DNA from: Escherichia coli
GTDB taxonomy: Bacteria > Pseudomonadota > Gammaproteobacteria > Enterobacterales > Enterobacteriaceae
DNA: 64,000 nucleotides
Reading direction: 5' to 3' (one strand)
NCBI RefSeq assembly: GCF_003018255.1
Contig: NZ_CP027440.1
Part shown: one piece after another, positions 25,900 through 29,381 of the stretch
How positions within the stretch are numbered: position 1 is the stretch's first letter
Layout of the letters: each line of letters opens with the position of its first letter
The notes under the pieces: model-generated
Told to the model about the DNA's origin: nothing
Seen by the model: the letters and a program-made list of their open reading frames with translations, nothing else
Database searches by the model: none
Translations under genes and position numbers: made by a program

Positions 25900-27681
25900 G
25901 TGAGCGATATTGTTTACCTGAGAATAATCGGTGAGAAGCAGGGCTATATTTCTTCAGGCTGTGGGACGTATGCGTCGGTTGGTAATTGCTGGCAGGTTGG
26001 CCATGAAGATGAAATTTTTGCCTTTGCACTCACCAACGCCATTACCAGTACTGGTAAAGGCGTTAATCTACAGGGGCTACAATTTTGCAAACTCATTGAT
26101 AAAAGCTCACCGCTACTGTCTAATGCCATCAATCAGAATGAGCGGTTATTTATTGAAATCGATTTGTATCGTATAAATAAAAGCGGGCGCTGGGAACGGT
26201 ATTATTATATTCAGCTAAGAAATGCTTCATTAACTGCTATTCATGTAAACATTTCTGACAATAATCTTCCTACCGAATGTATAACTGTCGATTATGACTA
26301 CATATTATGTAAACATCTAATAGTCAATACGGAATTTGACTGGTTGGCCTTTCCTGCTGGCTATAATAGCTTATTTATTCCGCCTAAAAGCCCACCTGCC
26401 AGTAATCTTAAGCCTGAACCTCTACCAGTTGTTAACCTTCCACTCTCTTCACCAGCGGTTAACCCGGTCTATGCAAAATCCTGTCTGAAGGAGAAGGGAT
26501 GTACAGATGCTGGAACGGCAGAAGAACCCGCTGAAAACTTCGGTCAAGTAGCGATTTTTGCTCAGCCAGTGGTTGATGACTGCTGTGGATACCACCATCC
26601 CGAGGCTAACGATGTCGGGCAACCCGCAGAAGCTCAAACCATGCTACTGTTTCCGGGTAGTGTGTTGGCGGCTCAAATATGGGGAAAATGGTCGCTCAGT
26701 GGCATACTCAGTGCAACCCGCGGCTCTTACATCGGTGCGTTGGCATCTGCTTTGTATATTCCCTCTGCGGGCGAGGGCAGTGCTCGCGTGCCCGGACGTG
26801 ATGAGTTCTGGTATGAGGAAGAACTGCGGCAGAAAGCACTAGCAGGCAGTACCGCCACCACCCGGGTACGTTTTTTCTGGGGAACTGACATTCACGGCAA
26901 GCCTCAGGTGTATGGTGTTCATACGGGTGAAGGTACGCCGTATGAAAACGTCCGCGTGGCGAACATGCAGTGGAACGAGCAGACGCAGCGTTATGAATTT
27001 ACCCCCGCTCACGATGTCGATGGCCCCCTGATTACCTGGACGCCGGAAAATCCGGAACATGGGAATGTTCCGGGCCATACCGGTAACGACAGGCCGCCGC
27101 TGGATCAGCCCACCATTCTGGTGACGCCGATTCCGGACGGCACCGATACCTATACCACGCCGCCATTCCCGGTTCCTGATCCGAAAGAATTCAACGATTA
27201 TATTCTGGTTTTTCCGGCGGGATCCGGTATTAAGCCCATCTATGTTTACCTGAAGGAGGATCTGCGAAAGCTGCCTGGTGTTGTAACAGGGCGCGGCGTC
27301 CCGCTTTCACCAGGAACTCGCTGGCTGGATATGTCGGTATCCAATAACGGCAACGGCGCACCAATCCCGGCGCATATTGCTGATAAATTGCGCGGACGGG
27401 AGTTTAAAACCTTTGATGAGTTTCGCGAGGCGCTGTGGCTGGAGGTGAGTAAAGACTCAGTGTTATTGGCGCAGTTTATAAAAAGTAATCAGAATAACGT
27501 TAGTCAAGGATATTCCCCCTATGTCCCTGAGGAGGGGTATTATTACGGACCAAATGAGATAGTTAAGAAATTCCAGATACATCATGTAGTTGCTATAGAA
27601 CATGGTGGTGGAGTGTATGATATTGATAATTTTAGGATTGTTACGCCCCGACTACATGATGAAATTCACTACAGGAGATAA
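25900..27681 (+). CDS. T6SS Hcp 'extended toxin' effector: N-terminal Hcp domain, Pro-rich/pyocin-S-like middle region, C-terminal colicin E-type HNH DNase
   Basis: 593 aa, GTG start; residues ~1-160 match Hcp family (KLIDKSSPLLSNAI..ERLFIEIDLYRIN..ERYYYIQLRNASLTAIH vs Hcp EIDKSSPYLY..FKWYRI); C-terminus GAPIPAHIADKLRGREFKTFDEFREALWLEVSKD...GYSPY...FQIHHVVAIEHGGGVYDIDNFRIVTPRLHDEIH aligns with colicin E9/E7 and pyocin S DNase ([34 protein letters not shown]...[33 protein letters not shown]). Confidence 0.88.
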   Translation: MSDIVYLRIIGEKQGYISSGCGTYASVGNCWQVGHEDEIFAFALTNAITSTGKGVNLQGLQFCKLIDKSSPLLSNAINQNERLFIEIDLYRINKSGRWERYYYIQLRNASLTAIHVNISDNNLPTECITVDYDYILCKHLIVNTEFDWLAFPAGYNSLFIPPKSPPASNLKPEPLPVVNLPLSSPAVNPVYAKSCLKEKGCTDAGTAEEPAENFGQVAIFAQPVVDDCCGYHHPEANDVGQPAEAQTMLLFPGSVLAAQIWGKWSLSGILSATRGSYIGALASALYIPSAGEGSARVPGRDEFWYEEELRQKALAGSTATTRVRFFWGTDIHGKPQVYGVHTGEGTPYENVRVANMQWNEQTQRYEFTPAHDVDGPLITWTPENPEHGNVPGHTGNDRPPLDQPTILVTPIPDGTDTYTTPPFPVPDPKEFNDYILVFPAGSGIKPIYVYLKEDLRKLPGVVTGRGVPLSPGTRWLDMSVSNNGNGAPIPAHIADKLRGREFKTFDEFREALWLEVSKDSVLLAQFIKSNQNNVSQGYSPYVPEEGYYYGPNEIVKKFQIHHVVAIEHGGGVYDIDNFRIVTPRLHDEIHYRR

Positions 27682-27977
27682 TGTATATGCGTGATTTAAA
27701 AGATAAAATATATTTTTACACAGAAGGTGAATTTCTTGAAATGCTTGAGGAGATAGTAAATGCAACTAGCAAAGATAAATCCCTAAAAGGGAAAAAATTA
27801 GAAAAATATCTCGATACCTTAGTGGATCATTTCATTAAAATTACTGAACATCCTAAAAAGGGAGATCTCATTTTCTATCCTAATTCCCAAGAAGATGGTG
27901 AACCTGAAAACATCCTGAAAATCGTCAAAGAATGGCGGCGTTCACAGGGGCTACCCTTGTTTAAAGACTCTAAATAA
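27681..27977 (+). CDS. Colicin/pyocin DNase immunity protein (Im7/Im9 family), cognate to the Hcp-DNase
   Basis: 98 aa; ATG overlaps toxin stop (TAATG) with AGGAGA RBS; YTEGEFLEML...HFIKITEHPKKGDLIFYP...ILKIVKEWRRSQG matches Im9 (YTEAEFLQLV...HFEEMTEHPSGSDLIYYP...IVNTVKQWRAANG). Confidence 0.9.
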   Translation: MYMRDLKDKIYFYTEGEFLEMLEEIVNATSKDKSLKGKKLEKYLDTLVDHFIKITEHPKKGDLIFYPNSQEDGEPENILKIVKEWRRSQGLPLFKDSK

Positions 27978-28003
27978 AGTAGATAATAAAACTATATATG
28001 AAA

Positions 28004-28031
28004 CATCATCGCGTCTGGCTAATGCGATGAT
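28004..28031 (+). terminator. Hairpin after immunity gene 1 (CATCATCGCG-loop-CGCGATGATG type); copy also at ~28695-28722
   Basis: Inverted repeat catcatcgcg tctggctaa tgcgatgatg seen in sequence, repeated in each cassette. Confidence 0.5.
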
Positions 28032-28126
28032 GTTAATAACATAAAATAATAATATGGTTGCTCTTAAAAAACAGGTAAAAAATACTGAAATCATTTTATC
28101 AATTTCTCGCGTTCACCGATACCCTT

Positions 28127-28372
28127 TGGCTGGAGGTGAGTCAGTATCCGGAGTTGATAGCGCAGTTTTCAAGTGGTAACCAAACACGTATAAAACAAGG
28201 ATTAACCGCAAAAGCACCTCTTGAAGGTTGGCGTTATGGCCCTAAAGAAATCGTTAAAAAATTCCAGATACATCATCGTGTTGCAATTGAATATGGCGGC
28301 AGCGTATACGATATTGATAATTTACGAATTGTTACCCCCAGACTACACGATGAGATTCACTACAGGAGATAA
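28127..28372 (+). CDS. Orphan HNH DNase C-terminal module (lacks Hcp/translocation part; begins at the LWLEVS junction)
   Basis: In-frame LWLEVSQYPELIAQFSSGNQTRIKQGLTAKAPLEGWRYGPKEIVKKFQIHHRVAIEYGGSVYDIDNLRIVTPRLHDEIHYRR; HNH core intact; ORF track 28136..28372 begins at internal GTG; no independent promoter/RBS evident. Confidence 0.75.
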   Translation, partial: WLEVSQYPELIAQFSSGNQTRIKQGLTAKAPLEGWRYGPKEIVKKFQIHHRVAIEYGGSVYDIDNLRIVTPRLHDEIHYRR

Positions 28373-28374
28373 AT

Positions 28375-28668
28375 ATGTTTAAAGAAAAGCTCGAAGATTA
28401 TACCGAGGAGGAATTTCTTAATTTTTTAGGCGGATTGAGATCAACTATGAAAGATGGAAAGCCCTTAAAAGGTAAGGAGCTAGAAATGTACTGGGATTCA
28501 TTAGTAGATCATTTTATTGAAATTACACAGCATCCGTCAGGGAGCGATCTAATTTTCTACCCTAAAAGTCAAGGAGATGATAAGCCTGAAAACATCCTGA
28601 AAATTGTCAAAGAATGGCGGCGTTCACAGGGGCTACCCTTGTTTAAAGACTCTAAACAAAGTAGATAA
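28375..28668 (+). CDS. Colicin/pyocin DNase immunity protein, variant 2 (cognate to orphan module 1)
   Basis: 97 aa, EDYTEEEFLNFLGG...HFIEITQHPSGSDLIFYP...ILKIVKEWRRSQGLPLFKDSK; divergent N-terminal half, conserved C-terminus. Confidence 0.88.
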   Translation: MFKEKLEDYTEEEFLNFLGGLRSTMKDGKPLKGKELEMYWDSLVDHFIEITQHPSGSDLIFYPKSQGDDKPENILKIVKEWRRSQGLPLFKDSKQSR

Positions 28669-28816
28669 TAAAACTATATATGGAACATCATCGCGTCTGG
28701 CTAATGCGATGATGTTAATAACATAAAATAATAATGTGGGTGCTCTTAAAAAACAGGTAAAATACTGAAATCTCATTAGGTTATTTTATCAATTTCCCGC
28801 TTTCACCGATACCCTT

Positions 28817-29065
28817 TGGCTGGAGGTGAGTCAGTATCCGGAGTTGATAGCGCAGTTTTCAAGTGGTAATCAAACACGTATAAAACAAGGATTAATCGCA
28901 AAAGCACCTCTTGAAGGTTGGCATTATGGCCCTAAAGAAATCGTTAAAAAATTCCACATGTATCATTGTGTTGCGATTGAATATAGTGGCGAAATTTACG
29001 ATATTGATAATTTAAGGAGGGCACACCTCATTTGCATGATGAAATTTATTACAGGAGATAGTTAA
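28817..29065 (+). pseudogene. Degenerate orphan HNH DNase C-terminal module (frameshifted, catalytic His substitutions)
   Basis: ...GPKEIVKKFHMYHCVAIEYSGEIYDIDNL then frame change; HH replaced by YH; a different frame reads HLHDEIYYRR* (final His replaced by Tyr) relative to RLHDEIHYRR in the intact copies. Confidence 0.75.
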
Positions 29066-29356
29066 ATGTATAATTTTAAAGATAAAGTAGAAGATTACAC
29101 AGAGCGGGAATTCATTGAGTTGCTTGGCGAGTTTACAAATCCAACCGGGGATAACGCTCAATTAAAAGGGGAAGAGCTTGACAAATATTGGGATGATCTA
29201 GAAGAACATCTTACCAGAATTACACAACATCCGTTGATGAGCGATCTTATCTACTATCCTGCAAAGAAGGGAGATGATAAGCCTGAAAACATCCTGAAAA
29301 TCGTCAAAGAATGGCGGCGTTCGCAAGGATTGTCTTTGTTCAAAGATTCAGAATGA
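29066..29356 (+). CDS. Colicin/pyocin DNase immunity protein, variant 3 (intact; paired with degenerate orphan module)
   Basis: 96 aa, EDYTEREFIELLGE...HLTRITQHPLMSDLIYYP...ILKIVKEWRRSQGLSLFKDSE. Confidence 0.88.
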   Translation: MYNFKDKVEDYTEREFIELLGEFTNPTGDNAQLKGEELDKYWDDLEEHLTRITQHPLMSDLIYYPAKKGDDKPENILKIVKEWRRSQGLSLFKDSE

Positions 29357-29381
29357 ATTCTAAACAGAATCTGTCACCTGA

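Follow-up and report, generated by a model that had tools for sequence, protein, structure and literature searches.

Loci that encode Rhs and CdiA toxins carry orphan C-terminus/immunity modules downstream of the full-length toxin gene. A review of polymorphic toxins that covers rhs and cdiA already counted Usp among the "evolved Hcp" toxins and, in 2015, called evidence for its secretion lacking (PMC4436062). Here we describe the usp locus in a stretch of 64,000 nucleotides from Escherichia coli (RefSeq assembly GCF_003018255.1, contig NZ_CP027440.1), which we call the window. Positions 27436-29360 of the window are the 3' half of the known island PAIusp, and the locus is not new. We conclude, with a probability of about 0.75, that the first module of the island, composed of the C-terminal tip of the Usp DNase and the immunity gene next to it, sets specificity and self-immunity, and that the cassettes downstream are kept as spare immunity genes with leftover toxin tips attached.

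Much of the anatomy of PAIusp has been described. The insertion site between aroP and pdhR, the domain structure of Usp and the promoter, with P3/TyrR induction by aromatic amino acids, are given in PMC7142922, as are the low G+C content of the island and its presence in Salmonella. usp is followed by orfU1, orfU2 and orfU3 (here imu1, imu2 and imu3), which encode 98, 97 and 96 aa; uspI is linked to orfU1 and uspII to orfU2, islands have two or three orfU genes, and four subtypes are distinguished (PMC3685522). The same paper summarizes Nakano 2001 and Parret & De Mot 2002 for PAIusp and orfU. The subtypes (Ia and Ib; IIa and IIb) are in routine typing use (PMC8087846), and the tip variants, the linked immunity genes and the four island subtypes have been in print since 2001. 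The gene UTI89_C0121 is listed both as usp (PMC3203889) and as Hcp-ET3-4 (PMC6730261). Summaries of Ma 2017 describe Hcp-ET3-4 of UTI89 as a fusion of Hcp, Pyocin S and colicin DNase with three immunity-gene copies behind it, and report antibacterial activity (PMC6730261, PMC6099711). Orphan immunity genes in E. coli are also noted in PMC6730261, again with reference to Ma 2017. Because the window has the aroP-pdhR site, a 593-aa Hcp/Pyocin_S/DNase protein and ORFs (open reading frames) of 98, 97 and 96 aa, and because UTI89_C0121 bears both names, we identify the locus as PAIusp. The original prediction, made from the sequence of the window, had supposed that such arrays were uncharacterized for Hcp-fused DNases. 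This was wrong (PMC3685522, PMC6730261, PMC7142922, PMC8087846).

There is no structural difference between published PAIusp, with its linkage of tip to immunity gene, and the island in the window. However, the usp papers describe the small ORFs as immunity genes only, and truncated DNase pieces between the imu genes are not mentioned in the usp literature that we searched, which did not include the 2001, 2002 and 2017 originals. Similarly, summaries of Hcp-ET3-4 treat the downstream genes as duplicates of the cognate immunity gene, whereas we find three distinct classes, each with its own tip remnant. What we add (the sub-domain module, exact breakpoints, population counts, universal decay of two tip types and a natural recombinant) are refinements of the published work.

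The resemblance to Rhs and CdiA arrays is substantial. In both, start-less fragments of the toxin C-terminus lie behind a full-length toxin gene, and each fragment begins at a conserved junction motif and has an immunity gene of its own. In both, too, orphan types are expressed in other strains and recombination with the main gene occurs. There are also differences. An orphan in PAIusp covers no more than a portion of a single enzymatic domain (about 80 of 132 DNase residues), exact upstream homology is 15 nt, one spacer joint is common to the orphan cassettes, and two of the three orphan tip types (D and E, below) are dead.

As a virulence marker of extraintestinal E. coli, usp is in wide use. 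It occurs in about one fifth of complete genomes and is dominant in strains of the sequence type 131 (ST131) type. A polymorphic-toxin view would replace the picture of "one genotoxin with three protective proteins". The first module would define a strain's compatibility group, the extra imu genes would predict which rivals it can resist, and the subtypes Ia to IIb distinguished by polymerase chain reaction would be competition types. This view reinterprets and refines a known system and does not add a new one.

Organization of the toxin gene and its cassettes

usp (Hcp-ET3-4; 25900-27681, on the plus strand, as are all features of the island given below) encodes a protein of 593 aa. Pfam searches identified an Hcp domain at residues 28-139 (PF05638, E = 5e-13), a Pyocin_S domain at residues 309-450 (PF06958, E = 3e-40) and a colicin/pyocin DNase domain, Col-Pyo_DNase, at residues 460-591 (PF21431, E = 6e-43). 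The C-terminus matches the DNase of colicin E9 (E = 4.6e-34), and usp is annotated as tssD in an identical record (NZ_CP116067.1). An N-terminal Hcp part, a C-terminal toxin and an adjoining immunity gene make up the arrangement expected of a type VI secretion system (T6SS) Hcp-ET effector, and both the HNH DNase and the Im-family protein are recognizable by sequence. Size and architecture (Hcp, S-type pyocin, HNH DNase) are those described for Usp (PMC7142922).

The 3' end of usp and the DNA downstream of it consist of three head-to-tail units of about 690 bp, as originally predicted. We refer to these as unit 0, which includes the end of usp, and units 1 and 2, which are the orphan cassettes. 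The 15-mer TGGCTGGAGGTGAGT, which includes the codons for WLEVS and marks the left edge of the exchangeable module, is present at 27436 (27436-27450, in usp), 28127 and 28817, without a mismatch at any of the three sites and with spacings of 691 and 690 bp. A repeat search recovered two three-copy families, one of 232 nt (65/100/93%) and one of 300 nt (100/86/61%), and the spacings in the two families are 691/690 and 682/697 bp. Whole-unit identity is 76.8% between units 0 and 1, 72.3% between units 1 and 2, and 66.4% between units 0 and 2. Each unit contains about 245 nt of nuclease C-terminal frame, an immunity ORF (98, 97 and 96 aa, respectively) and a spacer of about 150 nt with a hairpin, so the description of orphan toxin-tip/immunity cassettes behind a full-length Hcp-fused DNase was borne out. 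The orphans do lack any Hcp or translocation part, and the truncation goes deeper than had been supposed, since the first 53-57 or so residues of the nuclease fold are also gone. The claim of near-identical spacers was slightly generous: it holds for the first ~95 nt, after which there are an 8-nt insertion and several mismatches, and global identity is 83.6%. Tandem Repeats Finder reported nothing in the region. This is not counter-evidence, because the longest period it considers is 500 and the units are divergent (66-77% identical).

The part of the toxin that is repeated is smaller than a domain. The LWLEVS junction aligns to W58 of colicin E9, inside the Col-Pyo_DNase domain, and the expressed tip in the window (tip A, uspI type; 27436-27681) corresponds to colicin E9 DNase residues 58-134. 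In the E9-Im9 complex, residues ~72-98 are the immunity-binding site and residues ~100-131 are the HNH motif. Judging from this alignment, what is repeated is not the whole DNase domain but the two-thirds of it that determine specificity and carry out catalysis. The exchangeable unit is thus made up of the last ~80 DNase codons and the colicin-type immunity gene that matches them. The invariant LWLEVS junction forms its left boundary, and its right boundary is the last ~70-100 nt of the imu gene, which are conserved in every imu gene.

The colicin E2, E7, E8 and E9 and pyocin S/AP41 pairs (PDB 1bxi, 7cei, 4uhp, among others) share with PAIusp the HNH DNase fold and the family of four-helix immunity proteins, and the variable segment in PAIusp coincides with their known immunity-binding region. 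The delivery route differs. Colicins and pyocins rely on receptor-mediated uptake and are plasmid-borne, whereas Usp is predicted to be delivered by the T6SS through its Hcp fusion and is encoded at a chromosomal locus.

Distribution and tip types

PAIusp is present in 1,058 of 5,426 complete E. coli genomes, always in the chromosome, and the full architecture of the window is found in 167 genomes at an identity of at least 95%. An assembly artefact was considered and rejected, as the structure is found in more than 1,000 complete genomes. We dissected 15 island loci, including the window. To count fused tips, we used junction-spanning queries and identity bands, cross-checked with a chimeric query; coverage was not used because megablast extended across divergent tips. 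Among the 1,058 genomes, the tip fused to the scaffold is A in about 260, B in about 243 and C in about 550.

We distinguish five tip types. Tips A and C are intact and are fused to the scaffold. Tip B is intact and is either fused or orphan. Tip D is always frameshifted and is found only as an orphan in the dissected loci; its one fusion to the scaffold is in strain NR1441 (below). Tip E always has the same stop codon and is only an orphan. Tip C (L003:4537-4782; also in L012, which is SE15, of the ST131 type) is the commonest fused type and differs from B by about 27% in the immunity-binding segment.

Modules are combined in five architectures, written here as tip and immunity gene in order from usp, with D and E always broken. 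The window and two other loci (L005 and L006) have A.imu1/B.imu2/D.imu3. L007 and L008 (MS8320 and WP3-W18-CRE-03) have A.imu1/D.imu3/E.imu1. Others have B.imu2/D.imu3/E.imu1 (e.g., L002) or B.imu2/D.imu3, and the SE15/ST131 type has C.imu2/D.imu3/E.imu1/D.imu3. The gene order in the window (usp with tip A, imu1, imu2, imu3) and the ORF sizes fit subtype Ia, and we assign the window to it provisionally.

usp itself is truncated in about five genomes, several of them by insertion sequence (IS) elements. IS1 or IS5-family insertions have inactivated usp independently in L013 (Z22-2; 5674-6427), in L015 (SCU-172; 1862-2991) and in other matches. Z22-2 has also lost the cassettes downstream of usp, together with more of the flanking DNA.

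Immunity genes are conserved and orphan tips decay

In the PDB, the small ORFs find their matches among immunity proteins, those of pyocin AP41, colicin E7 and colicin E9, with E values from 4e-20 to 1e-15 (4e-20 for imu2). imu1 (orfU1, 98 aa; 27681-27977, with an annotated start at 27687) is the cognate immunity gene of tip A. imu2 (orfU2, 97 aa; 28375-28668) is an orphan immunity gene cognate to tip B, and imu3 (orfU3, 96 aa; 29066-29356) is likewise an orphan, for which E. coli has no intact cognate tip. Between the three classes, identity over the first 200 nt is about 62%; within a class, it is 96-100%.

All 45 imu ORFs examined are intact. The ratio of nonsynonymous to synonymous substitution (dN/dS) is 0.04-0.3 in pairs with a dS of about 0.2, close pairs giving unstable ratios. 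For imu3, dN/dS is 0.04-0.12 at a dS of about 0.2, even though imu3 is never beside an intact tip in E. coli. Because every imu gene is intact and under purifying selection, we infer that immunity, and not a supply of spare toxins, is the selected function of the cassettes.

Two minor features of imu2 were seen. In the window it encodes 97 rather than 94 aa because the usual TAA is CAA (28660-28668), which adds QSR; L005 and L006 have the same allele. The imu2 behind tip C is nearly unchanged, with a dN of 0.004 relative to imu2 in the window.

The orphan tips have fared differently. Orphan 1 (tip B, uspII type; 28127-28372) retains its frame and its HNH motif, and it could be active if fused. 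It is 95-96% identical to the fused B tips of L001 and L002 but lacks a usable start codon and the N-terminal ~57 aa of the DNase fold. A 78-aa ORF within it is annotated in ten records that are at least 95% identical, among the matches listed. Since GGAG directly abuts the GTG that starts this ORF at 28136, with zero spacing, independent translation of orphan 1 is unlikely. Orphan 2 (tip D; 28817-29065) is a pseudogene fragment. A 1-nt deletion in the HNH region, from ...DIDNLRIVTPRLHDEIHYRR to ...DIDNLRRAHLICMMKFITGDS, destroys the C-terminus of the HNH motif, and the HH pair is changed to YH. The same lesion is present in all 18 D copies across the 15 loci, and every E orphan has the same stop codon. 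One shared inactivating lesion per type indicates that the D and E tips decayed long ago. Orphan 2 cannot give an active toxin, and the window therefore holds at most one usable spare tip. The National Center for Biotechnology Information's Prokaryotic Genome Annotation Pipeline lists the orphan tips (28136-28372 and 28826-29065) as free-standing genes, under the labels 'HNH endonuclease signature motif containing protein', 'pyocin-S2/colicin E7-DNase domain-containing protein' and 'hypothetical protein'. These names are misleading for start-less fragments.

The earlier description of the orphans was correct except that it missed the frameshift in orphan 2. The comparison it called for, a search for either orphan type fused in frame to the Hcp scaffold elsewhere, gave a positive answer for orphan 1, since B is the fused tip in about 243 genomes, and a negative one for orphan 2. 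No intact D tip is fused to the scaffold in complete E. coli genomes, and the only D fusion, in NR1441, is a frameshifted usp.

These results bear on the original prediction that the array is a reservoir of tips that could be swapped onto the Hcp scaffold. In an active reservoir, orphan tips would be kept as spare warheads and regularly moved onto the scaffold by RecA-dependent recombination at the junction repeats, which would let a lineage change its toxin specificity. In favor of a reservoir, orphan 1 is intact in all three A-B-D loci dissected (the window, L005 and L006), its type is widely expressed, the window without unit 0 is collinear with IIb-type loci, and NR1441 proves that scaffold and orphan can recombine. 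However, orphan 2 and all E orphans are dead, with shared ancient lesions, and the sole recombinant, in one of 1,058 genomes, is a pseudogene. The exact homology between tip A and orphan 1 at the junction is only 15 nt, which falls short of what RecA usually needs for efficient recombination. If a swap took place by deletion, imu1 would also be lost and the recombinant left sensitive to its own parental clone. Furthermore, the best fused match to the window's orphan 1 among complete genomes is 98.2% and not 100%, and a search of those genomes for an exact copy fused to the scaffold found none. A reservoir is possible for orphan 1 only, and as a general explanation we consider it distinctly unlikely. 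Spare immunity genes plus fossil tips fit the array better.

Proposed roles of the orphan cassettes

We propose that the first module sets both the toxin that is fired and the immunity protein that guards the strain from itself. The two downstream cassettes of about 690 bp would be paralogous copies of the module in which the immunity gene works and the toxin piece is left over. The most likely role of the orphan imu2 and imu3 is to protect the cell when sister strains or species fire Usp tips of the B family at it.

Evidence from outside E. coli is relevant to the role of imu3. In another enterobacterium, at a different locus, a homologue that is 83% identical to Imu3 directly follows an intact 594-aa Hcp-pyocin-DNase, and the tip beside it belongs to the B/D family and is 86% identical to B. 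This Imu3-like gene beside an intact B-family toxin indicates that toxins that Imu3-type proteins could counter do exist.

An alternative, and the usual view in papers on usp, is joint self-protection, in which imu1, imu2 and imu3 are partly redundant defenses against a single Usp and the sequences between them are insignificant. Several published observations support this. All three duplicated immunity genes helped to neutralize the DNase (PMC6730261, summarizing Ma 2017), imu3 together with usp gave the most transformants (PMC3917654), and descriptions of the island present imu1-3, beside usp, as genes that "protect the producer" (PMC7142922, PMC9686529). Other observations sit uneasily with a set of three genes that act together. 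Natural islands have one, two, three or four imu genes in varied orders, so no fixed trio is needed. The imu gene directly after usp tracks the tip, imu1 following A and imu2 following B and C (see also PMC3685522). OrfU1 on its own protects, is enough for usp to be maintained and binds UspI in a tight complex (PMC3685522). The toxin-tip remnant before each imu gene is the signature of a former toxin-immunity pair. We regard joint self-protection as unlikely to account for the array.

Nonetheless, several points weigh against spare immunity with fossil tips. The protection by all three Imu proteins against the resident Usp, and the findings that Imu3 gave the best protection in a single assay and that it is DNA, not Usp, to which it binds (PMC3917654; PMC6730261, summarizing Ma 2017), suggest that the orphans may serve self-protection and not defense between strains. 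The neutralization of incoming B, C or D-type tips by Imu2 and Imu3 is putative. Tips A and B are equated with uspI and uspII provisionally, by gene order and sizes. A single-duplication origin for the array (below) is suggested by spacer similarity only. Finally, a promoter and terminator scan gave no more sites than in shuffled sequence, which leaves no grounds for assigning internal promoters to the orphan cassettes.

Module exchange and the origin of the array

The boundaries of the module can be read from comparisons among the dissected loci. Across loci, the usp scaffold is 97-99% identical, and in 13 of them its final 150 nt ahead of the junction do not vary at all. Just past the junction, identity falls to 62-74%. 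Types B, C, D and E have at most about 44 nt in common from the junction, and upstream of the junction the orphans have only weak similarity to the scaffold. The type of tip is discordant with the relatedness of the scaffolds.

The clearest case of exchange is provided by L007 (A-D-E) and L002 (B-D-E), which are virtually identical over 2.7 kb save for a block of about 500 nt. This block starts at the junction and stops at the immunity gene's conserved 3' end. The pair is a case of one module cleanly replacing another through two conserved arms. Islands of the L007/L008 type contain two copies of imu1, one cognate and one orphan, which suggests that an A module replaced a B module in a B-D-E background. 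Whole cassettes also differ between loci. The sole difference between L001 and L002 is one cassette of 699 nt, and the window minus unit 0 aligns to L001 without gaps and with 2.3% divergence.

One natural recombinant joins the scaffold to an orphan. In NR1441 (L014, NZ_AP040215.1, 4100-4640), a deletion of 2,088 bp has joined the usp scaffold to the last orphan tip, which is broken. Over 2 kb, the sequence is identical to the ST131-type locus, as far as 44 nt beyond the point where the junction starts, and thereafter it is identical to the last orphan cassette. The crossover lies 3' of the junction, in the 23-nt identical stretch CCGGAGTTGATAGCGCAGTTTTC. The product is a frameshifted usp with imu3 only. 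Thus, recombination between the expressed tip and an orphan occurs in nature, and the one case that we found is a dead end.

In principle, orphan 1 could be re-fused by a deletion of 691 bp between the junctions of units 0 and 1, which would give a IIb-like locus. This raises the possibility that PAIusp of subtype Ia is a low-frequency switch. If so, clonal populations of uropathogenic E. coli would keep yielding cells with another DNase tip and another immunity set, and the cassette structure would be maintained by selection for switching. A reaction of this type exists in nature, as NR1441 demonstrates. We consider a switch improbable, with only a slight chance of being correct.

How did the array arise? 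The spacers of both orphan cassettes in the window share the same joint, and for this reason the array probably started with one tandem duplication. This shared joint and the doubled imu3 cassette in ST131-type loci together point to tandem duplication and unequal crossing-over. Later changes would be of two kinds. Unequal crossing-over would gain or lose whole cassettes, and homologous replacement of the first module would alter the expressed tip.

A different origin is suggested by the T6SS immunity arrays of Vibrio cholerae. As in PAIusp, immunity genes are retained behind the current effector gene, and their likely role is protection against strains with older effectors (PMC5361080). In V. 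cholerae, whole effector genes are replaced and immunity genes accumulate; the PAIusp unit is a sub-domain tip plus an immunity gene, and PAIusp seems to involve duplication and unequal crossing-over. If the V. cholerae model applied, serial displacement by horizontal transfer would have pushed former resident modules downstream, with no duplication in situ. The replacement of the first module between L007 and L002 fits an incoming allele acquired through two conserved arms, and the discordance between tips and scaffolds, the low G+C content and the sharing of the island with Salmonella (PMC7142922) also fit horizontal transfer. Yet a two-arm replacement swaps a module and does not push the old one downstream. 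Independent events should leave different joints, and the orphan cassettes in the window have the same spacer and upstream joint. The two imu3 cassettes in SE15/ST131-type loci are most simply explained by duplication, and Usp-like loci of other genera have tandem immunity genes without tip remnants. We view serial displacement as possible but somewhat unlikely.

Spacers and signals for expression

Spacer 1 (27978-28126) contains a stable 13-bp hairpin at 28002-28034 without a U-tract (predicted folding energy -19.9 kcal/mol, z = -4.3), and spacer 2 (28669-28816) contains a 13-bp hairpin at 28684-28716. In the 3' tail of the island (29357-29621), a terminator-like hairpin at 29379-29415 is followed by UUUU. 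The cassette-end hairpins are homologous (13 bp), and only the last has a U-tract behind it, so the internal hairpins may allow read-through into the orphan imu genes. A weak match to the RNA family PhrS in Rfam (searched over 25300-29900) scored 16.6 bits against a gathering score of 37 and was rejected as chance.

Every tip ends in the codons TAC AGG AGA TAA, which place AGGAG 3-9 nt ahead of the next imu start. Each imu gene therefore depends for its ribosome-binding site on the end of the tip before it. We propose that leftover tips are kept in part because their last codons (TAC AGG AGA) provide this site.

Island boundaries and relatives outside E. coli

The island extends from 25545 to 29621. 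In BLAST comparisons, homology with the aroP-pdhR region of an island-free E. coli (L032) stops at 25544 and restarts at 29622, and about 180 nt of the empty site have been replaced. aroP (24001-25374, minus strand) is the left neighbor, and pdhR, which starts at 29812, is the right neighbor; PAIusp is thus in its usual aroP-pdhR intergenic region. In the first 50 kb of the window, the surroundings are ordinary E. coli core genome, from mraY to can, and no T6SS core genes were found there.

In other genera, Usp-like toxins have one to five tandem immunity genes behind them. A scan of one genome per species, from which S. bongori and S. salamae were not recovered, found no tip remnants between those immunity genes. 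The cassette form seems particular to PAIusp of E. coli.

A usp paralogue of 594 aa, with about 85% DNA identity to E. coli usp, is present on a metagenome contig of the European Nucleotide Archive (L033:2212-8133; also L034 and L035) from an enterobacterium other than E. coli. It adjoins a proP-like gene and has a single Imu3-like gene. Its neighbors include a C39-peptidase ABC exporter/HlyD/OEP set of the microcin-export type.

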